The notes under the pieces are model-generated. The model was not told the DNA's origin, did not search any database, and saw nothing but the letters and a program-made list of their open reading frames with translations. From an uncultured Chloroflexia bacterium (GTDB lineage Bacteria > Chloroflexota > Ktedonobacteria > Ktedonobacterales > JADMIN01), in NCBI GenBank assembly GCA_963718915.1, contig CAVRAI010000003.1:330001-362000 (forward strand): a stretch of DNA of 32,000 nt, in the 5' to 3' direction. The translations under genes were made by a program, and so were the position numbers. Below, one piece after another: positions 1,018 through 16,400 of this stretch (its first letter is position 1; each line of letters begins with the position of its first letter).

Positions 1018-1047
1018 AAGCAGAAGCGAGAGTGCTTCTGCTTTTTT
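1018..1047 (+). terminator. Intrinsic terminator in the aroH leader
   Basis: Perfect 10-bp stem AAGCAGAAGC / GCUUCUGCUU with a 6-nt loop (GAGAGU), running into a U6 tract (1042-1047). Confidence 0.8.
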
Positions 1048-1117
1048 GTTGTCCTCTGCTTCCCTCTCTCCTGTGGGTGAGGGGGTGAGGGGGCGAGGTC
1101 AGGGGGAGTCAATACTG

Positions 1118-1957
1118 ATGGAAAGCTCATCGACCGTGCGCTGCCGGGGACTGCGCGGCGCGACCACCGCCGCCGATAACAGCGCCGAAGCGATTCTCGC
1201 CGCCACCCGCGAGCTACTCGAACGGCTGGTGGCGCGCAATGCCCTCGATGTCGCGGATATCGCCAGCGCGTTCTTCACCGTGACCGACGACCTCGACGCC
1301 GCCTATCCCGCCCTGGCCGCGCGCGAGCTGGGCTGGAACGAGGTGGCGCTGCTCTGCGCCCGCGAGATCCCCGTCCCCGGTAGCATCTCTCGCTGCATCC
1401 GCGTGCTGCTCCACATCAACACGACGAAGGGACAGGGCGACCTGCGCCACGTCTATCTGCGCGAGGCGGTGGCGCTGCGGCCTGGCTTCGCCGACACTGC
1501 CACCACCAGCTACTATGCCCGCCGTAGAGCGCGTCGCCATCATCGGTCTGGGGCTAATGGGCGCGTCGCTCGGCCTGGCGCTACGGGAGCGGGGAGAGGC
1601 GCGGCAGGTAGTGGGATTCGACGTCGATCCTGGCGTGACAGCGCGCGCCCGCGAACGCGGAGCGATCGACGTTGCCTGCTCATCGGTCGCGGAGGCGGTG
1701 ACTGGCAGCAATCTGGTAGTGCTGGCCACGCCGCTGCTGGCAATGCGCGATCTGCTGGCGGAGATGGCGCCACTGCTGGCCGAGACGACGATTGTCACCG
1801 ACCTTGGCAGCGTCAAGGCGGAGGTCGTCTCATGGGCGGAGTCGCTCGCTGCCCGCCCCCCGCCAGTTCGTTGGGGGACATCCGATGGCGGGCAGCGAGC
1901 AATCAGGCATCGAGGCAGCTACTGGCGCTCTATATCACGACTGCGTCTGGTGTCTGA
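1118..1957 (+). CDS. aroH: AroH-class chorismate mutase. The conserved domain ends near 1500, and the frame has no stop codon until 1957.
   Basis: [123 protein letters not shown] matches the AroH family pattern (IRGIRGATT ... CIRV ... RHVYL..A..LRP). RBS GGGGGAG lies 9 nt upstream of ATG 1118. The tail after about residue 130 is Arg/Gly-rich off-frame read-through of tyrA. Confidence 0.8.
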
Positions 1958-2397
1958 CGCCCACCGATGACACATCCGTCGCCGCGCTCCACCGCGTCGC
2001 ACAAGTAGTAAAGGCAGTAGGCGGCCACCCGCGCATCATGCCGCCGGAGCAGCACGACCGGGCGGTCGCGCTGGCGAGCCACCTGCCACTACTGGCGGCA
2101 AGCGCCCTCACACTGACCGTCGCGCAGTCGCCGGATGCCACGGATGCCACGGACGCCCTTACGCTGGCGGCGGGTGGATTCCGCGATACGACGCGCATCG
2201 CCTCGGGCAGCCCGCGTATGGCACGCGACATCTGCCTGACCAACGGCGCCCCGCTTATCGCCTCACTGGACGCTTATATCACGACGCTGCAAGCGCTCCG
2301 ACAGCAGATCGCCGAGCAGAACCCAACGCTTGAAGGCACATTCACCACAGCCAAAGACGCGCGCGACCACTGGGTATCGGGCCAGTCAGAAATGTGA
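1515..2397 (+). pseudogene. tyrA: Prephenate dehydrogenase (TyrA) split by a +1 frame change (real frameshift or single-base assembly error)
   Basis: The N-terminal part in the frame of 1515 reads [17 protein letters not shown]...LVVLATP...[19 protein letters not shown]. The C-terminal part in the frame of 1792 reads [20 protein letters not shown]...PEQHDRAVALASHLPLL. The two halves overlap around a C6 run at 1856-1861. Deleting one C there would give ...[17 protein letters not shown]. Confidence 0.8.
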
Positions 2398-5283: not shown

Positions 5284-7245
5284 CTACGGCGTTCGCGAGC
5301 GGGACGGGCGCTGGATCCAGACGGCAATCGTAAACATGAGTCCCAGTAGCGCCAGGATGGGCATAATCGCCCATGACGCCCATACCAGCACGCCAGAGCT
5401 ATCAATGCGAAGCGGGTACCAGCAGAAGAGCCAATTGAGCAACGCCAGCGCCACAATGCCACCAGGCAGCGCATACAGGGTAAGCCAGAGGCCCGCTTCT
5501 TTGTCGAGAATTGAAGGTATGCTAAAAGCCAGGACAATCAGGCCAAAGAGCGCGCCACAAATAAGTCCGCTTACCTCCCAGCCAAAGAAACCAACAGTGA
5601 GGCCGATAACTGCGCCAGCAAGCCCCACAAGCGCGCCTATCCCCAGCGTTGAGGCCAGGGACCCAAAGAAATACTTGGCGGCACGGCCATCGACTACCTG
5701 AGATATGATCATGATCACCTCACCAACGGCAATGAAGAGCAGCCCGTACGCCGCGCCGAAAAGCCCGCCAAATGCCCAGGGAGTATTCGTGGTCAGTTGC
5801 AATGTTCCCAGATACGGAAAGTCGTAGGCGCGGATTGCTGGCGCGGCGGGCAAGACGTTGGCAATGACAAACGTCACCGTGGTAGCAACGACGATTGCGC
5901 AAAGCGCCATGGCAGCCATGTCGAACGGGCTGGCGACACGACGATATCCCAGATAATAGCCCGCGACCGAGAAGAGGGCGACAAGCACGGCAATCACGAT
6001 GGCCGATTCTATCAGTTTTTCCAGGCCACTCGCGCTCACAACGTTTGACGCAATGGGACGCCCCGTCGCCACCAGGCCGCCGAGCACACCAATCGCGCTC
6101 AGCATAACAAGGATGTAGGGCAAAAGCGCTACTGGATACCGTGTTGAAAACTTCTCTTTGCTATAAACCGCCCGCGCCTCCTGTTTCTCGGTAGCCGCCT
6201 CCTGTTTCTCCCTTTCCGCTACTGCCGCTTCGTATGACTGCGGCACGCTCAGGTGAAGCTGCGAGGCGAGGTTCTCGGGGTCACCATAAAAAGGCGCTTC
6301 GGCCCATAAATCGCGCAACTTTTGGCGGGCGAGGTCAAGCTCGTGGCGTTTGACCCGATCACCTACGATGGCATACATATCCTCGTATTTCTGGTTATGT
6401 GTGGCCACGCCAAGCGCATCCTTCGCGCCACCATTTTTGGAATCCAGGACAAGAATTGCCTGCCAGTCGGTAATCTCGCGTCGCCATTCGCCGTTCTGTC
6501 TCGCCCGGCGAGCATCGGCGCGCAGGTCGTCAATGCGCATGTCCTGGAGCCTTTGCCGTAATTGCTTCAGGTCTCTGGCGACACGACCATTGAGATAGTC
6601 TGGACTCTCATCCACGATCTGCTGAAAGAATATCGCGGCCTGCTCAAGCTCTCCCCGCACATAGGCGGCATCTCCTTTATCGTAGAGTTCTTTGAGGCTC
6701 AGGGCGGGAGAAGGCGGCAGTGGTTGCGGCGGAACGAGTTCTGGCTCCGTCATCGCGGGCGCACCGGACGAACCGCCTGGGTGCGGCGCTTCAATCGGTC
6801 TTGATTGATGGGACAGGCTTGTCGAATCAATGGGCGTCACTGGCGGCGCCAAGCGCGCAAGGGTATTGACAAGGTTTCTCAGCGCATCATCATACGATCC
6901 CTGAAAATCCACCCATTGAATGTCATTTAAGTCGAATGGGACTTTCTCAACAGGCTTATAGAGCACAGGAATGACTACCAGACCCAGCGTATTGAGCGCA
7001 TAGCGATACTCAAGCTTGACGTTCCGCGAAGCGACGGCGTCGGGCGAGAGGATAACAACCACGACCTGACTGCGCTCAATCGCGCCCTGTATCGCATCTT
7101 GAAAATCCTGGCCGCCTTCGAGCTTTCGCCGATCAACCCACGTATCGAATCCACGCGCTTTCAGGCTCACGTCAAGTCTGTCGGCAAACGATGTGTCTTT
7201 ACGGGAATAGCTGATAAAGACGCGGATTCGTGTCTGCTCTCTCAC
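5284..7245 (-). CDS. TIR domain protein with a helical/TPR-like linker and a C-terminal polytopic membrane domain
   Basis: The N-terminus reads RIRVFISYSRKDTSFADRLDVSLKARGFDTWVDRRKLEGGQDF...VVVVILSPDAVASRNVKLEYRYAL, a TIR_2-type pattern that includes the conserved Glu position. The middle region is helical, e.g. LKELYDKGDAAYVRGELEQAAIFFQQIVDESPDY. The last ~300 aa contain roughly 8-9 hydrophobic segments. I place the start at GTG 7245 (GAGGG 7 nt upstream); the ORF is open to TTG 7326. Confidence 0.8.
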   Translation of the reverse strand: MREQTRIRVFISYSRKDTSFADRLDVSLKARGFDTWVDRRKLEGGQDFQDAIQGAIERSQVVVVILSPDAVASRNVKLEYRYALNTLGLVVIPVLYKPVEKVPFDLNDIQWVDFQGSYDDALRNLVNTLARLAPPVTPIDSTSLSHQSRPIEAPHPGGSSGAPAMTEPELVPPQPLPPSPALSLKELYDKGDAAYVRGELEQAAIFFQQIVDESPDYLNGRVARDLKQLRQRLQDMRIDDLRADARRARQNGEWRREITDWQAILVLDSKNGGAKDALGVATHNQKYEDMYAIVGDRVKRHELDLARQKLRDLWAEAPFYGDPENLASQLHLSVPQSYEAAVAEREKQEAATEKQEARAVYSKEKFSTRYPVALLPYILVMLSAIGVLGGLVATGRPIASNVVSASGLEKLIESAIVIAVLVALFSVAGYYLGYRRVASPFDMAAMALCAIVVATTVTFVIANVLPAAPAIRAYDFPYLGTLQLTTNTPWAFGGLFGAAYGLLFIAVGEVIMIISQVVDGRAAKYFFGSLASTLGIGALVGLAGAVIGLTVGFFGWEVSGLICGALFGLIVLAFSIPSILDKEAGLWLTLYALPGGIVALALLNWLFCWYPLRIDSSGVLVWASWAIMPILALLGLMFTIAVWIQRPSRSRTP

Positions 7246-7436
7246 GACTTTGCCCTCAATTGCATCTGTAACCAAATCGAACACGATGTAGCAGTGGACG
7301 GTAGTTTTGAAGTGTTTTCGACGCAAGAACTCCTCGATGAAGATACTGAACTAGCCGCTAGTCTAGCATGCAGCCAAACTTACGGCAAGCACGAGAAAGC
7401 TGGCTTCTCTGTGGGCGGCCAATGAAGACCCACCGA

Positions 7437-7545: not shown

Positions 7546-8664
7546 GTGGCGAAACAGGCGAGCGGCGGCATCAACATCTCCCAGGCGCTCGGTATGCTGA
7601 CCCGGCGGCAAATCATCACGCTAGGCATCGCCGTCGTGGCAACCGCGCTGGCGGGCATCCTCCATTTCGCGGAGGCAAACGCCGTGCTGACGTTTGTCGT
7701 CGCGGGCGTGGCGCTGGCGACGCTGGCCGCGCTGGTTGGCGACGCCACCGAGCAACTGGGCACGCGGCTCGGCCCCGGCGCGACGGGAGTGCTGCAATCC
7801 GCGCTGGGCAACCTGCCCGAACTCTTCGTCGGCATCTTCGCCCTGCGCGCTGGACTGGTGGATGTGGTGCAGAGCGCGCTGATTGGCTCGATTCTGGGCA
7901 ATAGCGTGCTGGTGCTGGGGCTGGCCTTCCTGGTGGGTGGCTTGCGTCACGGCGAGCAGAAATTCTCCTCGGATCCGCCGCGCATGATGGTCACACTCAC
8001 CTTGCTCGCGGTGGCGGCGCTGGCCATCCCGACGTTGGCATCCCTGCTACATACTCCTGCCCAGCCGCACAGCGAGGGGTTGAGCATCGCCTGCGCCATT
8101 ATCTTGCTGCTCGTCTTCCTCGCCAGCATCCCCGTCTCGCTGGCGGGTGGTCCGGCCAGTCTGCCTGGAGAACCGCCAGAGGCGGTCGAGGCCACCAGCC
8201 ACATCTGGCCGGTCTGGCTCGCCGTCGCCATCCTCGTCGTCGCGGCGCTGGGCGCGGCGTTCGTCTCCGAATGGTTTATCACGGCGCTGGAGCCGACGAT
8301 AGCGGTCCTCCATCTCTCGCAGACGTTCACTGGTCTGGTGATCGTCGCCCTCGCGGGCAACGCCGTCGAGCATGTCGTCGGCATCCAGTTGATGGCGGCG
8401 AACAAGCCCGATTATGCCATCAGCGTCATCATGAACAGCTCGCTCCAGATCGCGCTCTTTCTGATCCCCGTGCTGGTGCTGCTCAGCCTGGTGCTCGGCG
8501 GCGCATACCTGACGCTGGTGGTCTCGCCGCTGCTGCTGGTCGCGCTGGGGCTGGCTGCGCTGCTGGGCACGATCATCATCTACGACGGCAAATCCACGTG
8601 GCTGGAGGGCCTCGCGCTCGTCGGCCTCTACTGCATCATCGCCATCTCGTTCTGGTGGGGCTAG
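7546..8664 (+). CDS. cax: Ca2+/H+ antiporter (CaCA/CAX family)
   Basis: Two alpha-repeat signatures: GNLPELFVGIFALRAGLVDVVQSALIGSILGNSVLVLG and GNAVEHVVGIQLMAANKPDYAISVIMNSSLQIALFLIP. About 11 TM segments. GTG start with GAGGAGGG 5 nt upstream. Confidence 0.9.
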   Translation: MAKQASGGINISQALGMLTRRQIITLGIAVVATALAGILHFAEANAVLTFVVAGVALATLAALVGDATEQLGTRLGPGATGVLQSALGNLPELFVGIFALRAGLVDVVQSALIGSILGNSVLVLGLAFLVGGLRHGEQKFSSDPPRMMVTLTLLAVAALAIPTLASLLHTPAQPHSEGLSIACAIILLLVFLASIPVSLAGGPASLPGEPPEAVEATSHIWPVWLAVAILVVAALGAAFVSEWFITALEPTIAVLHLSQTFTGLVIVALAGNAVEHVVGIQLMAANKPDYAISVIMNSSLQIALFLIPVLVLLSLVLGGAYLTLVVSPLLLVALGLAALLGTIIIYDGKSTWLEGLALVGLYCIIAISFWWG

Positions 8665-8847
8665 AGCAGTTAGACTGAACTCGTCGCTGGCCGTCTCTAA
8701 TCTGCACACGCCATCTCCCCTACACTGACGCCGCCGATGGCTATCAGCACGCACGCGCATGCGCTCAATACACCATCAACGCTACGGTTTCTGCCTGTCT
8801 CTGTGTCATCGCGCGATACCCTCGATCACCTTCAATTACGCTAACTA

Positions 8848-8876
8848 TTGACAATCACTGATAATTCATGATAATA
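8848..8876 (+). promoter_or_regulatory. Sigma70-type promoter of the XRE gene with overlapping TGATAA repeats
   Basis: TTGACA (8848-8853), a 17-nt spacer, then ATAATA (8871-8876). TGATAA hexamers start at 8859, 8869 and 8883, the last within the perfect palindrome TGATAAcTTATCA (8883-8895). Confidence 0.5.
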
Positions 8877-8996
8877 AATTGGTGATAACTTATCAGCTCT
8901 CGTGACACTTCATGAAAAGAAAATAGCAACATATTGCGATAAGCTATGATAGAAAGGGGATTACTCATGATTGCTACTGGATGAAGAGAGAGTGTT

Positions 8997-9224
8997 ATGC
9001 CAACTCCAAAGAGCCGCATCTATCTTCCATACTTGCAGGCATGGCGACTCCATGCGCTGTTGACTCAGGACCAACTAGCGGAGGCGTCAGGCGTCGGGAA
9101 GGCCACGGTGGTACGTGCCGAGGGAAATAGCCTTGTCAACGCGCTCACGGCAGCGCGAATCGCCAGAGCATTGAACATCACCCTAAAGCAATTGGAGATG
9201 ACAGAGCCAGAGGGCGGCGAGTAA
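8997..9224 (+). CDS. XRE-family helix-turn-helix transcriptional regulator (phage repressor-like)
   Basis: LTQDQLAEASGVGKATVVRAEGNSLVNALTAARIARALNITLKQL is a typical HTH_3/XRE motif in a 75-aa protein. Confidence 0.85.
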   Translation: MPTPKSRIYLPYLQAWRLHALLTQDQLAEASGVGKATVVRAEGNSLVNALTAARIARALNITLKQLEMTEPEGGE

Positions 9225-9283
9225 AAGGGAAAGATTTACCTTGAAGAAAGTCAGGTAAATATATTGCATTGTGAGGAAGGGGT

Positions 9284-10180
9284 GTGACACACCCCCCTAT
9301 GGGAAAGGTCGAAATCATGGGCGATGACACCGGGCAGGCGTTAAAGCCAGTGGAGCAGGATACTATCATGTTCTACGGCCATGAGCTAGTCGCCGTGCGC
9401 CTGGCAGATGGGCGGATCGCGGCGGTACTCCGCTGGCTCTTTGAGAGTCTGAATCTGGAGCGTAGAGGCCAGATGCAGCGCATCGAACGCAAGACAGCGT
9501 TGCGCAAGGGTTTGATTAATGTGGAAGTGGACACGCCCGGCGGCCCACAAATTATGTCCGCCCTGACGTTACAGGTATTGCCCGGCTACCTCTTCACAAT
9601 TGACGAAAGCCGCGTCAAAGAGGAAGCCCGCGCCGATGTGATTCTGTTCCAAGAGGAATGCGTTGCGGCGCTCGCCGAGCATTTCACCCGCAAGCATCCA
9701 CCAGCCCTCCCGTCGGCAACAGATGCCACAGCGGCAACGGTCATCATCGAGCAGATCGCCGACTTAACCGGTGTTATCAACCTATTGCGCGAACATTTGG
9801 AGATGCTGTTGGTGTTGCCCAGCCAGGTGGCCGAACTCTCGGTAGAGGTCAGTGAGACACGGGTATTGGTCGAGTCACTAGCAACGCGGCAAGACGCCAC
9901 GGAAACGCACCTGGCAGCAGTCGACGCGCGCACCCAACGCCTGACACCAGCGCATGCGCGGGCGGTACAGGAGATGGTGAATCGTATGGTGCGCGAGACA
10001 AGACACAGCGCGACGCCATTCACCTATGCCATCATCTACGGCAAGTTGAAGACACGCTTTCAGGCAGGCAGCTACAATGAGATCGCAGATAGTCGCTTCG
10101 ACGATCTGATGGCATGGCTACGTGAGGCGCTCAACAACGCGACGAGCGGAGAAGCGCCTGAGCAGGGGAGTCTGTTCTGA
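9284..10180 (+). CDS. Phage antirepressor-like protein (P22_AR_N-like N-terminal domain plus ORF6C-like C-terminal domain)
   Basis: IMFYGHELVAVRLADGRIAAVLRWLFESLNLERRGQMQRI...GGPQIMSALTLQVLPGYLFTIDESRVKEEARADVILFQEECVAALAEHF fits the P22 antirepressor N-terminal pattern (F.G..L...G...V......LGL....Q...I......G.Q.M..L.L..LPGWLF.I....V....R..L..YQ.EC). The C-terminus (LTPAHARAVQEMVNRMV...YGKLKTRFQAGSYNEIADSRFDDLMAWL) is ORF6C-like. The start is uncertain: GTG 9284, ATG 9299 or ATG 9317. Confidence 0.7.
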   Translation: MTHPPMGKVEIMGDDTGQALKPVEQDTIMFYGHELVAVRLADGRIAAVLRWLFESLNLERRGQMQRIERKTALRKGLINVEVDTPGGPQIMSALTLQVLPGYLFTIDESRVKEEARADVILFQEECVAALAEHFTRKHPPALPSATDATAATVIIEQIADLTGVINLLREHLEMLLVLPSQVAELSVEVSETRVLVESLATRQDATETHLAAVDARTQRLTPAHARAVQEMVNRMVRETRHSATPFTYAIIYGKLKTRFQAGSYNEIADSRFDDLMAWLREALNNATSGEAPEQGSLF

Positions 10181-10210
10181 GAAGAAGCGCACACATCCGC
10201 GCCCGCTGCA

Positions 10211-10293
10211 CTGCTGCTTGTCGCGCTGGGGCTGGCCGCGCTGCTGGGCTGTATTGCATCTGCATCATCGCCGTCTCGTTCTGGTGGGGATGA
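10211..10293 (+). pseudogene. Displaced, internally deleted fragment of the cax 3' end (right-hand repeat of the insertion)
   Basis: It encodes ...LLLVALGLAALLG and ...CIIAVSFWWG* (the intact gene has ...LLLVALGLAALLG...YCIIAISFWWG*). About 62 nt between the two blocks are replaced by tgtattgcat. Confidence 0.75.
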
Positions 10294-10300
10294 GACCAGG

Positions 10301-11089
10301 TCAGTTCGCTCCCAGATCAGCTTTCTGTTCGGCTTCCTGCTCCACCTGCTCCATCTTCTTCACATCCGCTTTCGCCTTTTCAAGCAACGTTTGCTCCGCT
10401 TTCATGCTGAGCGTCCGGCGATAATAGCGCACAGCCCAGGCCATCATGATGACGAAGGCCACAAAAGCCGCCGCCGCCGACTGCCAGATACCGAGCGTGG
10501 CGATCCGCGTACCAGGAAAGTTGGCGATGAGCAATTCGTCAGTCATGAAGGCGCTTCCTCCGAAGCAGAGCGCGCCGATAAACCCCACCATGTAGCAAAC
10601 AACGAATGTTGCGCTGCCTCGGCGATCACCTTTCGGTATCCCCTTGAGCCGCCAGCGAAAGACATACTGGACAGCAGGTATCTGCTCCTCGAACTCCTGA
10701 ATATAGAACTCTTTGATGACATTCATCGCGATCAGACTCTCGCGGAACGCCTGTCGCAGCCGAATCAGCAGCACAAAGAAGGCGACGCCCGCCACCCCCG
10801 CCGCGAGCATCACAACAGCGGCAATCGGCTGGATGAAGCTGCGCGCCCCACCCAGCGGATAGACTGCGCCAAAGGCCGAGCCGAGGATACCGACCACCAG
10901 CAGATACATGTTGAACATGCGCGCGCGATCTTCCATCGCCTGATATGCCGTCGTCGAGGCGTAGTTGAACTCCTCCAGCAGCATGCTCTCAATCTTCAGC
11001 CCGCTGTCGCGCTTCCCGCCACCGTCTCCATCGTCCTTACGGTACGATGGAGTTCGCTGCGCTGGCGGGTTGGTCATATCCATCGGCAT
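10301..11089 (-). CDS. Uncharacterised 4-TM membrane protein with a charged coiled-coil-like tail; paralogue of the C-terminal half of the adjacent NUDIX protein
   Basis: LKIESMLLEEFNYASTTAYQAMEDRARMFNMYL...LIRLRQAFRESLIAMNVIKEFYIQEFEEQIPAVQYVFRWR aligns with LKLESIMLAEFNYASSTAYQALEDRGRMFNFYL...IVRIRQAFNDSLLTMNVIKDRYIGEFKASIPDVEKIFRWR in the upstream gene. RBS GAGGAG lies 8 nt before ATG 11089, and a 45-nt gap separates it from the upstream gene. Confidence 0.75.
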   Translation of the reverse strand: MPMDMTNPPAQRTPSYRKDDGDGGGKRDSGLKIESMLLEEFNYASTTAYQAMEDRARMFNMYLLVVGILGSAFGAVYPLGGARSFIQPIAAVVMLAAGVAGVAFFVLLIRLRQAFRESLIAMNVIKEFYIQEFEEQIPAVQYVFRWRLKGIPKGDRRGSATFVVCYMVGFIGALCFGGSAFMTDELLIANFPGTRIATLGIWQSAAAAFVAFVIMMAWAVRYYRRTLSMKAEQTLLEKAKADVKKMEQVEQEAEQKADLGAN

Positions 11090-11134
11090 CGCGCACGCTC
11101 CTCATCATCATTCGAGACATCAGGCTGAAAGACC

Positions 11135-12454
11135 CTACGCATCCGTCTTTTCTTTCGCCTGCTTCGCAGCCGCGTCCGCGCCAGTCTTCCGCAGCATCCC
11201 CTCATAGAAAATGGTCTGAATCAGCCACGCCAGCGCCAACGCGCCTCCGCCAATAAGGTAGGTGACCAGATTTGTGGAGAGATGCAGGGTATCCGTGTTC
11301 GCATCACTCGTGATAAGTTCCGTGACGACAACGGCAGCAAGGCCGATTGCGACACTATCAATGAATGACACACCAAAACATACGAGAAAGGTCAGGCTGC
11401 CAAAGCGCCGACCAGAAGGCATGGTCATTGTGCGCCAGCGAAATATCTTCTCGACATCGGGAATGCTCGCCTTGAATTCGCCGATGTAACGGTCTTTAAT
11501 GACGTTCATCGTCAGCAGGCTATCGTTGAATGCCTGGCGAATGCGAACGATCTTGAAGAAGAAGATGATACCGATGAACCCCGCCAGCACGAGAAGCGCA
11601 AGGGCGAGGTATTCGGAGTGATTGACTTTGCCGCCAAACCCATAGAGCGCGCCCAGACCGCTCGCCAGCACGCCAGTGATGCCAAGGTAGAAGTTAAACA
11701 TGCGCCCGCGATCCTCCAGCGCCTGATACGCCGTCGAACTGGCGTAGTTGAACTCGGCGAGCATGATGCTTTCGAGTTTCAGCGTCTGGTCGGTATTGGT
11801 TGCCGGGTCATGCTGACCAGCGGTGGGCGGTTGCATCGGATACTGGTTACTAGGAGAAAATGGCATTGCGGCTCCTCCAGGTATATCAGAAGATTGCGCC
11901 AGCGCATTCCGCGCCAGCAACAGTCCGAGCACAGTTTTGCTGTCGTCAATCTCGCCTGACTGGCATCGCGCCAGCGCGTCACTCAATGACACCCAGGCGA
12001 CGCCACTAATCTCCGTGGGATCTTGCGGACCAGATTGGCCCGGCGCCGACCGCAGATCGGTCGCGAGGTAGAGCGAAATCGTCTCGTTGGTGAATCCCGG
12101 CGAGGTATAGGTGCGCACCAGGAAGCGCATTGCCCCGGCGTCGTACCCGGTTTCCTCGCGCAGCTCGCGGCGAGCGGTCTGCTCTGGCTGGCCTGCCTCG
12201 GCAGGATTTATCAGCCCGGCGGGAAGCTCCCAGGTGCTGCGGTCGATCGCTGGACGCTCCTGCTGCACCAGCGCCACCAGTTGCGCGTCCGCATGCGCGG
12301 GATCGGCCCGCAGCGCGACAATCGCGACGGCGCCGGGATGCTCGACCACGTCGAACTGCGTGCGGCCACCACTGGGCGCGGGAAGTGTCCGTCGTAAGAC
12401 CCGTATCAGCGAGCCGCGATAGACCTCTTCGTCGGAGTATTGCTGTGGCTGCAT
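11135..12454 (-). CDS. NUDIX hydrolase (ADP-ribose pyrophosphatase/NudF-like) fused to an uncharacterised 4-TM membrane module
   Basis: The N-terminal half reads YSDEEVYRGSLIRVLRRTLPAPSGGRTQFDVVEHPGAVAIVAL...WELPAGLINPAEAGQPEQTARRELREETGYDA, with the NUDIX box core RELREETGY intact. The C-terminal ~220 aa are paralogous to 10301..11089. I chose ATG 12454 as the start (GGGAGGGGG upstream); the ORF is open to 12565. Confidence 0.8.
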   Translation of the reverse strand: MQPQQYSDEEVYRGSLIRVLRRTLPAPSGGRTQFDVVEHPGAVAIVALRADPAHADAQLVALVQQERPAIDRSTWELPAGLINPAEAGQPEQTARRELREETGYDAGAMRFLVRTYTSPGFTNETISLYLATDLRSAPGQSGPQDPTEISGVAWVSLSDALARCQSGEIDDSKTVLGLLLARNALAQSSDIPGGAAMPFSPSNQYPMQPPTAGQHDPATNTDQTLKLESIMLAEFNYASSTAYQALEDRGRMFNFYLGITGVLASGLGALYGFGGKVNHSEYLALALLVLAGFIGIIFFFKIVRIRQAFNDSLLTMNVIKDRYIGEFKASIPDVEKIFRWRTMTMPSGRRFGSLTFLVCFGVSFIDSVAIGLAAVVVTELITSDANTDTLHLSTNLVTYLIGGGALALAWLIQTIFYEGMLRKTGADAAAKQAKEKTDA

Positions 12455-12654
12455 AGCATTCCCCCTCCCTCGGCGGCAGGTTGCACGCCAAGTGGTTCGC
12501 TTGTTGTTGTAGTCGAGGTGCAGCATAGCATGTTTGGCCGCCTGCGTGAAGCCCCTGGCCCGCAAGTGGTTAAATGTGGAGGACTATGGCGCCCTAGCAA
12601 ACGGCCTTGAGAGCGCTGGGAGACAGGCAAAATTGGCGCACTATTCAGGAGCTT

Positions 12655-14946
12655 ATGACAGAGGGCATCACTTCGGCAAAAGAGACCAGGCGCCTGGAGC
12701 AATCCAGTGACGCGAAGGCGAGAACTCGTTCCTGGCTCGCGCGGTTCACCTGGGCGCGCTATCCAGAGTTTTGGATCATCGTGCTGGTCGCGGCGTTTCT
12801 GCGGCTGTGGCAGCTAGACCACTCACAGTGGCTCGACGACCAGGCGCAACTGCTGACGATGGCCCGCGACGCCTGGCTGCATGGCGCGCTGCCCATCACC
12901 GGGATTCGCTCCTCGATTGGCACGCTCAACCCGCCGCTCAGCGTCTACATGCTGATGCCGTTCTTCCTCTTCACCAAAAGCCCGCTGCCCGCGCTGATCG
13001 GGCTGGCGCTCTGGAATATCTTCGGCGTCGCGCTCTGCTATATCTTCGCGCTACGCTTTTTCTCACGAAGGGCCGCGTTCTGCTCAGCGCTCATCTTTGC
13101 CTGTTGTGGCGCGGCCATCAACTATAGCCGCTTCATCTGGCAACAGAACTACCTGCCGCCGCTGCTGCTGCTCTGGGCGTTCACGCTCTACGCCGGGGTC
13201 GTGCGCGAGCGGCGCAACTGGCTGGCGCTCCATCTGCTGCTGCTGGTCATGATTATCTCGCTACACCCCACCGGGCTGACGCTGCTGGCCGTCACCGCCG
13301 TCGCGCTGCTCATCGCGCCACACTGGCCGACCCGCCGCGACACACTGCTGGGCGTTGGCCTGGTCATTTTGCTGCTGCTGCCCACCATCCTCTGGGAACT
13401 GATGAGCGGCTTCTCTGACGCACAACTCTTACGCCAGTTCACCCAGCAGTCGCCCGTCTTCAATAGCGATGTCTTTCACGCGCTCTACCATCTGCTCGGC
13501 GCGCCCGCCTATCCTGGCCCCGGAACCAATACGCCCTATCCCGCCATCCTCGACACCGCCCTCTACGCCCGCATTGGCGGCATGAACATTGCCATTCAGA
13601 ATGCGGCGATGGCGCTCTATATCACCTGCTACCTGGTGCTGTCGATCCTGGCGCTGGCCCCGTTGCGGCGCGTGCGCGTTGGGGGAGTTGCGACTGGCTG
13701 GCGGCGCGTGTGGGGATGGCTGGTGGCGCTGCGGGCGGCGCTCCAGGCGGATGCGCGCTGGCGTTCCTATCTCCTGCTCTGGGTCTGGCTGACCATTCCG
13801 CCGCTGACGATGCTGCGCCACGGCAAGACAGTGCAGCCGCACTATCTGTTCATCCTTTATCCTGCCTTCTTCCTCTCCATCGGCGTCGCGGTTGACGCCA
13901 TCATTCGCGAGGCCCCGCGCGTGCTATCCGCGCTTCACATCCAGCTACGCCAGGCACAGCGGGCCGTCGCCGGGGGAGCGCTGGCGGTCGTGCTGCTGGT
14001 GGCGCTGGGACAGGGTGCGCAGTCCGCCCTCTTTATCGCGGCGGTCGGCGGCAATCAGGTCAGCACGGTCAACTTTGGCTACCCGCTGAATCAGCTCCTC
14101 GCCGCGGATAGCGCGCTCGCGACGATCCAGCGAGAACAACACGCGGGCAGCATCTTCGTCAGTATGCCCTCGCGCTACACCGCCTCGGCGATGGACTCCA
14201 CGCTCATCCGCGAGGAGGCCGACCGCACTGGTGTCACGGGCGACTGCCTCGCGCTACCCGACGCGCAGGCTGGCCCGACGCTGGTGGTCTCGACACGGGC
14301 GGCCAGCCCGCAGGGACAATTGCTGGCGACGCTGCCCAACGCTACGCGCGTTCAGGATATTGCTATGCCAGGGGATGAGCCGCTGGTCATCTATCGCCTG
14401 AGCGGGCCAACGCCGCTGCTATCGGATGAGCGCGCACTGCCCTCCGCCACCTGGCAGGATGGAAGTGGCGATACACTGCGTCTGGTGGCTGGCGCGCGCG
14501 TAGCGCCTGGCGTTATCCGGCTGCGCTGGGTCGTCGGAAATTGGACAATTCCTCATGATGTGAATGGCGAAGACACCACCGCGATGCCGCAATTCGAGAT
14601 ACAACTTCGGCGTGCCGGGCAGGGCGACGCGCAGGCGAACGCTCCGGTGGCTCGGGCCACCTGCCAGCCGACGCGCTTGCAGCCGGGCGAAACGCTCTTC
14701 ACCTGGGTCTCGACCGCATGGAACGCCAACGGAACCAGCCTCACCGCCGTCGCGCCGCCGCTGCCAGCCTCGCTGCTGACGTTATCGGCGCTGCACGGGG
14801 AGCCGTCACTCTGGCAGGGTCGGTTTGGGCCGCTGCGGGTATTCTCGGCGGCGCCGGTGGGGGGGCCACTCACGCCGATGTCCACCACGAGCGCGAACGG
14901 CGTCTATCAACTACCCGACGCCCTTACGAGGAGCAGCGCGCCGTGA
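12655..14946 (+). CDS. GT-C fold glycosyltransferase, family 39/83-like (ArnT/PMT-type), with a large extracytoplasmic C-terminal domain
   Basis: WARYPEFWIIVLVAAFLRLWQLDHSQWLDDQAQLLTMARDAWLHGALPITGIRSSIGTLNPPLSVYMLMPF...ALCYIFALRFFSRRAAFCSALIFACCGAAINYSRFIWQQNYLPPLLL is a typical ArnT/PMT_2 N-terminal membrane core. It is paralogous to 16438..18957. The ORF is open from TTG 12607. Confidence 0.75.
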   Translation: MTEGITSAKETRRLEQSSDAKARTRSWLARFTWARYPEFWIIVLVAAFLRLWQLDHSQWLDDQAQLLTMARDAWLHGALPITGIRSSIGTLNPPLSVYMLMPFFLFTKSPLPALIGLALWNIFGVALCYIFALRFFSRRAAFCSALIFACCGAAINYSRFIWQQNYLPPLLLLWAFTLYAGVVRERRNWLALHLLLLVMIISLHPTGLTLLAVTAVALLIAPHWPTRRDTLLGVGLVILLLLPTILWELMSGFSDAQLLRQFTQQSPVFNSDVFHALYHLLGAPAYPGPGTNTPYPAILDTALYARIGGMNIAIQNAAMALYITCYLVLSILALAPLRRVRVGGVATGWRRVWGWLVALRAALQADARWRSYLLLWVWLTIPPLTMLRHGKTVQPHYLFILYPAFFLSIGVAVDAIIREAPRVLSALHIQLRQAQRAVAGGALAVVLLVALGQGAQSALFIAAVGGNQVSTVNFGYPLNQLLAADSALATIQREQHAGSIFVSMPSRYTASAMDSTLIREEADRTGVTGDCLALPDAQAGPTLVVSTRAASPQGQLLATLPNATRVQDIAMPGDEPLVIYRLSGPTPLLSDERALPSATWQDGSGDTLRLVAGARVAPGVIRLRWVVGNWTIPHDVNGEDTTAMPQFEIQLRRAGQGDAQANAPVARATCQPTRLQPGETLFTWVSTAWNANGTSLTAVAPPLPASLLTLSALHGEPSLWQGRFGPLRVFSAAPVGGPLTPMSTTSANGVYQLPDALTRSSAP

Positions 14947-16400
14947 GTTCCCAGGAGAAACCCGCCGCGATGGCCGGAGAGCCTGCCACCCCTTCAGGGC
15001 AAGACCACACGCCGGATACGAATACGACCGCCGATGCCCCATCAAGGTACGCGCCCACCACGCCGCGCTATCGCAAGCCCTGGCTCGATGCGCTGTTGCT
15101 TCTGGTCGCGCTGATCGAGTTGCTGGCGCTCTTTCCGCACAACCTGCGCGGCGATGGCGGGCCACGTTTCGCCGCGCTCTCGCAACTTCTCGAAGGTCAC
15201 GGCCTCCCCGCGATTAAATATTCGCTCATCGGGCCGCTCTTTTCCGCGCCGCTCTGGCTGCTGGGCAAAGCCACCTCCACGCCGCAGACGCTGGTGGAGG
15301 TCTACAACTGGCTCGTCTTCGCGATGGGCCTGCTGGCGCTCTATCTGCTCTTGCGCAATGTGATGGACCGCCGGGTGTTGCGGACGTTTCTGCTGCTGCT
15401 TGTAGCCGCCTCGATGTTTCCCGCGCACACGCTCTCGTTCTACGCCGAAACGTTCACGGCGGTCGCTGTGGCTATCGGCTCGGTGCTGGCGGTCTTTGGC
15501 AAACGGCTTGCCGCCCTCGGCGGATGGGCGCTGGCGGCGCTTGGCGTGGCCAATATCCCCGCGAGCATCCTGGGATTCGCGAGCATGGCGCTGCTCTATG
15601 CGCTACGCCGACGGCGGTTGCGCTATCTGGCCGCCGTGCTGGCAGCCGTCGCGCTGATCCTCGCGGAGGCGTGGCTACGGCGTGGCAATCCGTTCGCCAA
15701 TGGCTACGCGGGCGACTCCGGCTTCCATACCGTCATGCCCTACTCCGGCGGCCCCGGCTTCAACTATCCTATCTTCTTCGGCATCCTCGCGATCCTGCTC
15801 TCCTTCGGCAAAGGGCTGATCTTCTTCACGCCGGGACTCTTTCTGCCCGCGCGGCGCTATCTGCTGGCGCAGGGCGCGGAGAACGGAGCAAAGCTCTACA
15901 CGCTCTATCTGCTCTGGCTGGCGTTTGTCGGCGGCATGCTCCTTGTCTATGCGCACTGGTGGGCGTGGTATGGCGGCTGGTTCTGGGGGCCACGCTTCTT
16001 CCTCTTCGCGTCGATTCCCGCCGCGCTGGCGCTGGCCGTTCGGCTACATGCCCGCGACGCCGGGCTGGGGGCGAATCTGCTGACGCTCGTCGCACTCGCG
16101 CTCTCATTCTGGGTAGGCATCAACGGGGTCGTCTTCGAGCAACAGGGACTATCCGTCTGCACGGCGCACAACTACGCCCAGGAGTTTCTCTGCCAGTTCA
16201 CGCCGGAATTCAGCGCGCTCTGGCATCCATTCATCGTCTTTGAGCCTCTTTCCTCTGGCGCTATACTATACACTGCCACCAGCAGCGCTATCTTTCTTTA
16301 TCTCACGCTGCCGTTGCTCATACGCATGACGCGCCAGATCGCGGACTGGCTTCGTGGTACGGCGGCGGTGTACCTGCGCCGGGAAGCCTGGCGTCTATGA
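14943..16400 (+). CDS. Polytopic membrane protein, probable GT-C-type glycosyltransferase or accessory protein
   Basis: About 11 hydrophobic segments, with the motif HWWAWYGGWFWGPRFFLFASIPAALALA resembling the PMT_2/GT-C pattern. The GTG start overlaps the upstream stop (GTGA), which suggests translational coupling. An alternative ATG lies at 14970. Confidence 0.55.
   Translation: MSSQEKPAAMAGEPATPSGQDHTPDTNTTADAPSRYAPTTPRYRKPWLDALLLLVALIELLALFPHNLRGDGGPRFAALSQLLEGHGLPAIKYSLIGPLFSAPLWLLGKATSTPQTLVEVYNWLVFAMGLLALYLLLRNVMDRRVLRTFLLLLVAASMFPAHTLSFYAETFTAVAVAIGSVLAVFGKRLAALGGWALAALGVANIPASILGFASMALLYALRRRRLRYLAAVLAAVALILAEAWLRRGNPFANGYAGDSGFHTVMPYSGGPGFNYPIFFGILAILLSFGKGLIFFTPGLFLPARRYLLAQGAENGAKLYTLYLLWLAFVGGMLLVYAHWWAWYGGWFWGPRFFLFASIPAALALAVRLHARDAGLGANLLTLVALALSFWVGINGVVFEQQGLSVCTAHNYAQEFLCQFTPEFSALWHPFIVFEPLSSGAILYTATSSAIFLYLTLPLLIRMTRQIADWLRGTAAVYLRREAWRL

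Follow-up and report, generated by a model that had tools for sequence, protein, structure and literature searches.

A stretch of 32,000 nucleotides (nt) from an uncultured soil Chloroflexia bacterium of the order Ktedonobacterales (assembly GCA_963718915.1, contig CAVRAI010000003.1, positions 330,001 to 362,000 of the forward strand; hereafter the window) carries on its reverse strand two adjacent genes. The first encodes a NUDIX hydrolase domain joined to a module of four transmembrane (TM) helices, and the second encodes a paralogue of the module alone. The interpretation which we favour, with a probability of about one half, is that the pair encodes a vertically inherited hetero-oligomeric membrane complex, which would place the hydrolysis of ADP-ribose (ADPR) or of an ADP-sugar at the membrane. 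It is built on the catalytic signature of the NUDIX domain, on the repeated association of the module with NUDIX domains in two phyla, on a putative internal translation start within the fused gene and on the stable chromosomal inheritance of the locus.

The gene pair and its NUDIX domain

The long gene (11135..12454, reverse strand) encodes 439 amino acids (aa) from an ATG at 12454, with an N-terminal NUDIX domain of the ADP-ribose pyrophosphatase (ADPRase) type followed by the four-TM module. In the list of open reading frames (ORFs) it is open over 11135..12565, giving 476 aa from a TTG or 439 aa from the ATG. The ATG is favoured because the Shine-Dalgarno (SD) sequence GGAGGGGGA lies just 5' of it and because the N-termini of homologues in the alignment of the fused family agree; the coordinates given in a preliminary description of the window are therefore correct. 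The short gene (10301..11089, reverse strand) follows after a spacer of 45 nt (11090..11134, reverse strand), which holds the GAGGAG SD sequence behind which its ATG sits. Its product of 262 aa is a stand-alone paralogue of the module with a Lys/Glu-rich C-terminal helix, and is predicted to be the partner subunit of the long protein. A promoter and terminator scan found no terminator-like site in the spacer, consistent with co-transcription of both genes, and we propose that the two form a chromosomal operon. Its promoter is presumably located in the divergent intergenic region 12455..12606, between the pair and a cluster of GT-C (PMT_2-like) glycosyltransferase genes, where the same scan found no sigma-70-like match.

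The NUDIX/ADPRase domain (11885..12454, reverse strand; residues ~1-190) comprises an N-terminal beta domain of the dimerisation type, the Nudix box and an X-loop. It matches Pfam PF00293 over residues 42-161 of the long protein (E 1.8e-17, 64 bits against a cut-off of 21.1). The best match among PDB sequences in a phmmer search was the Mycobacterium tuberculosis ADPRase (1mk1, E 2.2e-25), which aligned end to end with residues 6-181, followed by Thermus Ndx4 (1v8i, E 2e-21), with NudK and NudF far more distant. The residues of the Nudix box are G80, E86, R96-E97, E100-E101 and G103, in the spacing G-x5-E-x9-RE-x2-EE-x-G, which differs from the canonical G-x5-E-x7-RE-U-x-EE-x-G-U by a two-residue loop insertion. 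The insertion is common to the whole family and the solved M. tuberculosis ADPRase is likewise irregular in the same loop, hence the x9 spacing is not a sign of decay.

Across 12 fused homologues the catalytic half, RELREETGY, is preserved unaltered; R96, E97, E100, E101 and G103 are invariant, as are S118-P119-G120-F121, with E124 nearly so. The preliminary description had reported two co-oriented genes 45 nt apart, the first with a NudF-like NUDIX half, an intact RELREETGY and the G-x5-E-x9-RE spacing; the coordinates, Pfam, phmmer and the alignment all agree with it. The domain also has the SPGF...E X-loop, whose proline P119 is positioned 15 residues past Y104, and a proline about 15 residues after the Nudix box marks ADP-ribose diphosphatases (PMC5389931). 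By these features the domain appears to be a working enzyme of the ADPRase type, from a lineage that is related to the characterised ones yet separate, and its invariant catalytic residues are easier to reconcile with an enzyme than with a domain that only senses a ligand.

The membrane module and its enzyme partners

The fused copy of the module spans 11135..11866 (reverse strand; residues 197-439 of the long protein, ending in a Lys/Ala-rich tail) and consists of a pre-TM1 helix (LKLESIMLAEFNYASSTAYQALEDRGRMFNFYL), TM1-TM2, a cytoplasmic loop (IRIRQAF...MNVIKDRYI...FRWR) and TM3-TM4. BLASTP aligns the two copies over 160 aa at 49% identity (E 1e-53), a degree of similarity which puts their paralogy far beyond chance. 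Hydropathy places the TM segments of the short protein at residues 58-76, 91-109, 160-178 and 196-214; TM1 and TM4 of the long protein are weaker in hydropathy yet homologous to those of the short one. The charge pattern follows the positive-inside rule for an N-in/C-in protein with a cytoplasmic TM2-TM3 loop, and the NUDIX domain and the conserved helices are thus shown, as far as sequence and model can place them, to face the cytoplasm. In the 39-sequence alignment nearly every residue is conserved in the helix entering TM1 (LLEEFNYAS.TAYQAMEDR.RMFN.YL), and the segment past TM2 (IRLRQA.RES...MN.IKEFYI...FRWR..IP.G) is also strongly conserved. A C-terminal module with four hydrophobic helices, a downstream gene reduced to that module plus a Lys/Glu-rich tail, and a set of conserved blocks had all been described beforehand; each was recovered, the blocks as invariant columns of the alignment.

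The short protein has 332 homologues, mainly from Ktedonobacterales. The named family closest to the module is PF24838 '8xMP' (octameric membrane protein family), with weak matches in both window copies (18.3 and 19.7 bits) and in 15 of 27 homologues, the best of these at E 2.7e-5. Overall scores lie at 17-22 bits against a gathering threshold of 30 bits, and weak matches recur in a TIR fusion and in fusions of reverse order (at most 22.2 bits for the latter), both presented below. The matched region covers the pre-TM1 helix, TM1, TM2 and the next helix (profile positions ~2-104 of 136). More distant members of the module family score no better, with at most one match, and a literature search for 8xMP, 'octameric membrane protein' or PF24838 returned nothing relevant.

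Structural comparison gave a similar picture. A profile of the module alignment yielded only noise among PDB sequences (E > 1). A first AlphaFold model, from a 27-sequence alignment, was too weak for use (pLDDT 64.7), and a model from a 63-sequence cross-phylum alignment reached pLDDT 82.6 and pTM 0.74. The latter predicts an all-helical fold of two long helical hairpins and a C-terminal helix, for which Foldseek found no match in PDB or BFVD (best E ~0.1, 0.11 in PDB; TM-score at most 0.34). The Pfam matches of the window copies and of 27+ members include no channel or transporter family and no SLATT/DUF4231 profile. An hhalign comparison with the SLATT protein of locus L027 gave a probability of 0.3%, a weak test since it used a single sequence, and a relationship between module and SLATT is accordingly not detected, rather than disproved. 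On sequence and predicted structure, the module is a distinct uncharacterised family with at most a remote link to 8xMP. The earlier remark that it was not recognised as any named family stands in so far as the module is uncharacterised and structurally unmatched, and needs qualifying for the sub-threshold PF24838 matches.

Module and NUDIX domain are associated in three gene arrangements. The first is the NUDIX-module fusion of Ktedonobacteria. The second is a reverse, module-NUDIX fusion with extra N-terminal TM helices; one group of these carries an ADPRase-type NUDIX (SPGFTNE), and a larger group of ~30 clusters, whose named members belong to candidate division KSB1, has a NUDIX of the NudK/NudF type. 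The module-NUDIX genes are syntenic in three KSB1 genomes, in housekeeping surroundings. In the third arrangement, found in L042-L044, the functions are split between two abutting genes, a module gene of 276 aa whose stop adjoins the start of a NUDIX gene of 194 aa; the NUDIX product is nearest to NudK (E 1.3e-28) and NudF. The module is thereby paired with two NUDIX subtypes, the Rv1700/Ndx4 type and the NudK/NudF type. Totals of the exhaustive profile search (19,514 / 6,277 / 124) are inflated by NUDIX proteins, as the profile held NUDIX columns, and do not represent family size. The occurrence of both fusion orders together with the split form is Rosetta-stone evidence of a functional partnership, and the module with a NUDIX of the type acting on nucleoside diphosphate (NDP) sugars is shown by these comparisons to be a conserved, old two-part unit across two phyla. 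The link between the two halves is accordingly stronger than the window sequence by itself had suggested.

In a further protein, P0233 (381 aa), the ADPRase-type NUDIX is followed by a membrane-associated C-terminus of another kind (YcxB-like, PF14317); membrane tethering of this NUDIX clade has thus arisen more than once.

Macro domains bind or hydrolyse ADP-ribose, and a Macro gene lies near the fused gene in two lineages, pointing to ADPR metabolism. In L028 (6827-9509) and L029 (1964-4646) a 389-aa Macro protein (Macro at residues 239-346, with ~230 unassigned residues before it) is encoded directly upstream of the module-NUDIX gene with a gap of 5 nt, and in L038 the Macro gene is two genes upstream. 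Three other KSB1 genomes lack a Macro gene at the same position.

In one case a TIR domain appears to have replaced the NUDIX domain. The gene for this TIR_2-module fusion, P0147, occurs in L027 (275-2951) with a SLATT_1/SLATT_3 (DUF4231) gene 385 bp upstream, and P0147 falls in the sub-lineage closest to the long gene of the window (52% identity over 232 aa). P0147 is a singleton protein on one metagenome contig of 4.1 kb, and was down-weighted as evidence for a role in conflict, as a rare swap or a chimera could account for it.

If this fusion is counted, all enzyme partners of the module (two NUDIX subtypes and one TIR) act on NAD+/ADPR-type substrates, and in either fusion order the enzyme is directly beneath the membrane module. 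Transport coupled to catabolism could be read from this, with the module conducting NAD+, ADPR or an NDP-sugar and the enzyme trapping or degrading it on the cytoplasmic side. The module is nevertheless without similarity to any transporter family, no binding protein or energising component is conserved nearby, and the TIR fusion is a singleton, which makes such a transporter very improbable.

The composition of the complex is addressed by a putative internal translation start in the long gene (11864..11878, reverse strand), where a GGAGGAG SD sequence (11878-11872) is separated by a 5-nt spacer from an in-frame ATG (11866-11864; Met197-Pro198) at the junction between NUDIX domain and module. 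Initiation there would give a module-only product of 243 aa. The junction Met-Pro (M197-P198) is invariant in every fused protein and matches the N-terminus of the stand-alone modules, MPxDxTNxP...R, which indicates that the fusion was created when a NUDIX gene came to read through into an intact module gene. An SD-like 5-mer was found 3-10 nt 5' of the junction ATG in 8 of 9 loci, representing ~8 lineages, where 0.11-0.28 per locus would be expected from synonymous-codon resampling at local usage. The motif is rare elsewhere: among 122 other internal ATGs just 3 have it, as do 1.8% of positions in frame, and GGA makes up 14.7% of Gly codons. Judging from this signal, fused genes probably also yield a NUDIX-less module subunit. 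One or two stand-alone modules follow the fused gene in 9 of the 14 evaluable loci; the fused gene has no stand-alone copy in L015, L023, L034, L036 and L038, and it is in these single-gene loci that an internal product would be needed.

Larger arrays were also observed. Three genes occur in L018 (8425-11473) and L020 (4779-7650), namely an extra stand-alone NUDIX paralogue (290 or 185 aa), the NUDIX-module fusion and a divergent stand-alone module, and in L007 the fusion is followed by two stand-alone modules; both components have thus been duplicated repeatedly in tandem.

In the favoured model, the building block of the complex would be the four-TM helical module, with both termini in the cytoplasm and two highly conserved cytoplasmic helices, one leading into TM1 and one out of TM2. 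At its N-terminus, in the cytoplasm, one type of subunit would bear an ADP-ribose (ADP-sugar) pyrophosphatase like Rv1700, Ndx4 and NudF, and NUDIX-less subunits would come from two sources, the duplicated stand-alone gene and internal initiation at the junction SD/Met-Pro. ADPRases are obligate dimers. A ring could hold fewer NUDIX domains than modules, with the NUDIX-bearing subunits dimerising and being diluted by bare ones. Free ADPR, or an ADP/GDP-sugar closely resembling it, would be hydrolysed by the complex on the inner side of the membrane, and the complex might be a lineage-specific housekeeping or regulatory part of NAD+/ADPR turnover, a role with which the Macro genes near the fused gene in two lineages are consistent. 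The module may act as a scaffold only, or as a conduit as well.

Several points weigh against this model. Its substrate, stoichiometry and internal initiation are all inferred from sequence. The NUDIX domain misses the equivalog and subfamily cut-offs of NCBIfam (54.7 bits against 169 for NudE, 49.5 against 79.55 for TIGR00052, YffH/AdpP, and 36 against 248 for NudF), so that ADPR is a putative substrate only. The near-total conservation of the pre-TM1 helix suggests a role beyond that of a passive anchor, and stand-alone modules occur in loci with no NUDIX gene nearby (L008-L013, L016, L021, L024-L026), indicating that the module has a role of its own. Moreover, some neighbours have a flavour of biological conflict: the SLATT gene with the singleton TIR-module fusion, one Shedu-like gene and one STAND NTPase.

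The last of these belongs to a single lineage, in which the NUDIX-module gene is followed by a gene for a protein of ~1,290 aa with a faint NPHP3_N (STAND NTPase) match (L036, 10570-14469; L037, 3073-7804); in L037 a DUF4062 protein is encoded after it.

Inheritance and surroundings of the locus

The window was compared with 26 genome loci. In L001-L004 and L006 the long protein is 67-81% identical, and a block is shared with the window which includes GT-C/PMT_2 genes on the opposite strand, the NUDIX-module gene, the stand-alone module, a Na/Ca exchanger, XdhC, EamA and AsnC; L003 lies on a shorter contig and shows the glycosyltransferase-to-exchanger part only. The divergence of the pair parallels that of the flanking genes. 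At ~46% identity, L034 (on a contig of 1.63 Mb) keeps PMT_2-x-PMT_2, the NUDIX-module gene and XdhC, then EamA-AsnC, and the adjacency to XdhC recurs in L007, L018, L020, L023 and L038. Elsewhere, stand-alone modules adjoin housekeeping genes (M29 peptidase, PNP oxidase, acyl-CoA ligase, CtaG).

Searches of 50,697 phage records, of 72,556 plasmids and of IMG/VR found nothing that matches the module, and no PADLOC model matches it; the NUDIX domain obtains only a weak match to PDC-S07 (1.5e-4). No gene for a signal generator or sensor is conserved with the pair, and only the module paralogue recurs as a partner in related loci. The locus is vertically inherited on a stable chromosome and is not a mobile anti-phage island. 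The preliminary description had taken the pair for a candidate nucleotide-signalling conflict or defence system, a proposal not supported in view of synteny conserved down to ~46% identity and of the lack of phage, plasmid and PADLOC matches: core-genome synteny free of mobile or defence association, which it had named among the grounds for abandoning the idea, is what was found. The residual support is thin and amounts to the TIR-module/SLATT locus and the Shedu-like and STAND-NTPase neighbours. A nucleotide domain on a small TM module near a phage scar can mimic a defence effector and still be a stable vertical locus.

The GT-C genes which adjoin the pair divergently in the window and in its five closest loci (L001-L004 and L006), as well as in the distant L034, raise the question of envelope glycosylation. 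The complex might be a membrane-tethered NDP-sugar pyrophosphatase (acting, for example, on GDP-mannose or ADP-glucose) which tunes the sugar-nucleotide supply for polyprenyl-phosphate-dependent GT-C enzymes. Two PMT_2-like genes are present at this position, a GT-C gene of the MptA_B family lies 5 kb downstream in three KSB1 genomes, a GMPPB-like sugar-1-phosphate nucleotidyltransferase is encoded directly upstream of the split pair in L042, and the NUDIX of the split and KSB1 forms is nearest to the GDP-mannose pyrophosphatase NudK (E 1.3e-28). The Ktedonobacterial NUDIX, however, resembles ADPR-specific enzymes (E 1e-25) much more closely than it does NudK (E 1e-9), and it has the X-loop proline of ADPRases; the Macro neighbours likewise indicate ADPR. 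The adjacency itself is lost in L036 and L038, the remaining related loci compared (including L007, L018 and L020) have no homologue of the window's GT-C genes, and GT-C and nucleotidyltransferase genes are common enough for their proximity to be due to chance. Furthermore, GT-C genes and pair are divergent and not co-transcribed, and in L034 an IS605 element parts them. A role in envelope glycosylation is on these grounds quite unlikely.

The element in L034 is an IS605-family OrfB/TnpB gene (7775-8938; Cas12f-like) sitting between the GT-C cluster and the NUDIX-module gene, and its insertion argues against obligatory co-regulation from the shared divergent region. Between the PMT_2-like genes of the window, a membrane ORF of 560 aa (14718-16400, forward strand) overlaps the ORF at 12607-14946 (forward strand) by 229 nt as listed, and probably begins at a later position within the listed ORF. 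Neither Pfam nor PADLOC matches it, and its synteny is kept, with a 472-aa gene in L034. At the other side of the window, a chorismate mutase/prephenate dehydrogenase gene (1046-2397, forward strand) is split into three overlapping frames (1046-1957, 1515-1970 and 1792-2397), the counterpart in L002 being a single ORF of 424 aa; either a pseudogene or frameshift sequencing errors would explain it.

Two insertions are specific to the window. The first, of ~1.6 kb (~8665-10300), holds two genes assigned by Pfam, one of the HTH_3 family (8997-9224) and one Ant-like with P22_AR_N (9284-10180). On either side of it, sequence from the Na/Ca-exchanger 3' end is repeated in direct orientation (8530-8568/10211-10249, 95%; 8631-8660/10260-10289, 97%). 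The insertion is absent in L002 and L006 and represents an att-like scar in the exchanger 3' end from which the integrase is gone. The phage remnant noted beside the pair in the preliminary description is thus real, with its HTH_3 and Ant-like genes and repeats; as context for the pair it was rejected, being an independent insertion into the exchanger gene.

The second is a TIR gene (5284-7326, reverse strand) 4 kb from the pair, inserted between XdhC and the Na/Ca-exchanger promoter. Its product of 680 aa begins with a TIR_2 domain (E 2.4e-28), continues as a helical region and ends in a multi-TM part of ~280 aa; PADLOC models reach it through the TIR domain only (Aga_TIR 4e-20, ThsB 2e-9). 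None of the related loci compared has a homologue of it. From its domains it is plausibly a stand-alone TIR-TM defence or NADase gene. A functional link with the pair was rejected, since the gene is absent from syntenic relatives and belongs to another transcription unit across an intervening gene, and its TM region is unrelated to the module.

These neighbours bear on a further alternative, in which the pair would form a channel or pore regulated by ADPR or a derivative of it. The NUDIX domain would bind the ligand, gate an oligomeric conduit and end its own signal by catalysis, in physiological signalling or as an abortive-infection effector, following the logic of TRPM2 or of ThsA Macro-TM in type II Thoeris. 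The architecture is suggestive, with a soluble nucleotide-binding domain on a small oligomer-type TM module, heteromeric paralogues such as are typical of channels, conserved cytoplasmic helices hugging the TM hairpin which could serve as a gate, and a recurrent weak likeness to the octameric membrane protein family, whereas no SLATT similarity and no pore or channel fold match was detected. The TIR-module fusion beside a SLATT gene in L027, the Macro neighbours in two lineages and the defence-type TIR gene 4 kb away would fit a signalling role, yet no enzyme that would generate the signal is conserved with the pair, the TIR gene of the window is missing in all relatives, and the TIR-module protein is a singleton on a 4.1-kb contig. 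Core synteny, vertical inheritance, and the absence of the module from phages, plasmids, IMG/VR and PADLOC speak against an effector, as does the hazard of a lethal ADPR-gated pore when free ADPR is a common metabolite; the invariance of the NUDIX catalytic residues is a further point against the channel. We regard such a channel as unlikely.

Somewhat more doubtful is a combination of enzyme and channel, that is, an oligomeric and possibly octameric conduit of NUDIX-bearing and NUDIX-less subunits which ADPR or an ADP/GDP-sugar would open and hydrolysis would close, with internal initiation setting the stoichiometry. Should a channel reading prove true, it would provide the first bacterial Nudix-gated conduit, an ancient counterpart of TRPM2 logic from an unrelated membrane fold.

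Comparison with known systems

No description of the module or of its NUDIX fusion was found in the literature searched, and the partnership of the module with an NDP-sugar NUDIX appears undescribed there; the NUDIX domain itself adds a new lineage to an enzyme family that is well known. If the favoured model is true, it defines a cross-phylum unit of membrane module and NDP-sugar/ADP-ribose Nudix hydrolase, and gives a functional handle in NAD+/ADPR metabolism to a membrane family without known role or structure. It would also mean that in bacteria of complex, filamentous growth, Ktedonobacteria among them, the membrane can be a site at which ADPR turnover is organised, and that a gene fusion has retained an ancestral internal start, so that one gene gives both enzyme-bearing and bare subunits.

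The soluble ADPRases Rv1700 (1mk1), Ndx4 (1v8i) and E. coli NudF (1g0s) are homologous to the NUDIX domain from end to end, sharing the N-terminal dimerisation-type domain, the RE-x2-EE-x-G motif and the X-loop. Known ADPRases are, however, soluble stand-alone dimers of 170-210 aa, whereas the present domain is joined to a four-TM module and co-encoded with a paralogue of that module. In comparison with 8xMP, for which neither a solved structure nor literature was found, the similarity is weak and recurrent, and the present module has two extra TM helices.

The parallel drawn beforehand with TRPM2, whose NUDT9-homology domain is C-terminal, holds for the architecture only, in that both have an ADPRase-type NUDIX on an oligomeric membrane protein. 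Pfam and Foldseek against PDB found no homology between the membrane parts. In human TRPM2 the NUDIX domain has no catalytic activity; that of the present family, in contrast, has its catalytic residues fully conserved.

The type II Thoeris effector ThsA (Macro-TM) and the SLATT 2TM effectors similarly combine an ADPR-recognising soluble domain with a small TM module, and the helix-TM-TM-helix layout is common to them and to the present module. SLATT with TIR is a described pairing, and SLATT is predicted to be a membrane effector regulated by ADPR derivatives (PMC9503650). Unlike those systems, the present locus has no conserved TIR or other signal generator, and is chromosomal, syntenic and vertically inherited.

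The Nudix box of the Nudix-related transcriptional regulator NrtR is usually degenerate. NrtR offers a precedent within NAD metabolism for the addition of an ADPRase-like NUDIX to a non-enzymatic output domain (PMC2330246). In NrtR that output is a DNA-binding domain, whereas in the present family it is a membrane module, combined with an intact Nudix box.

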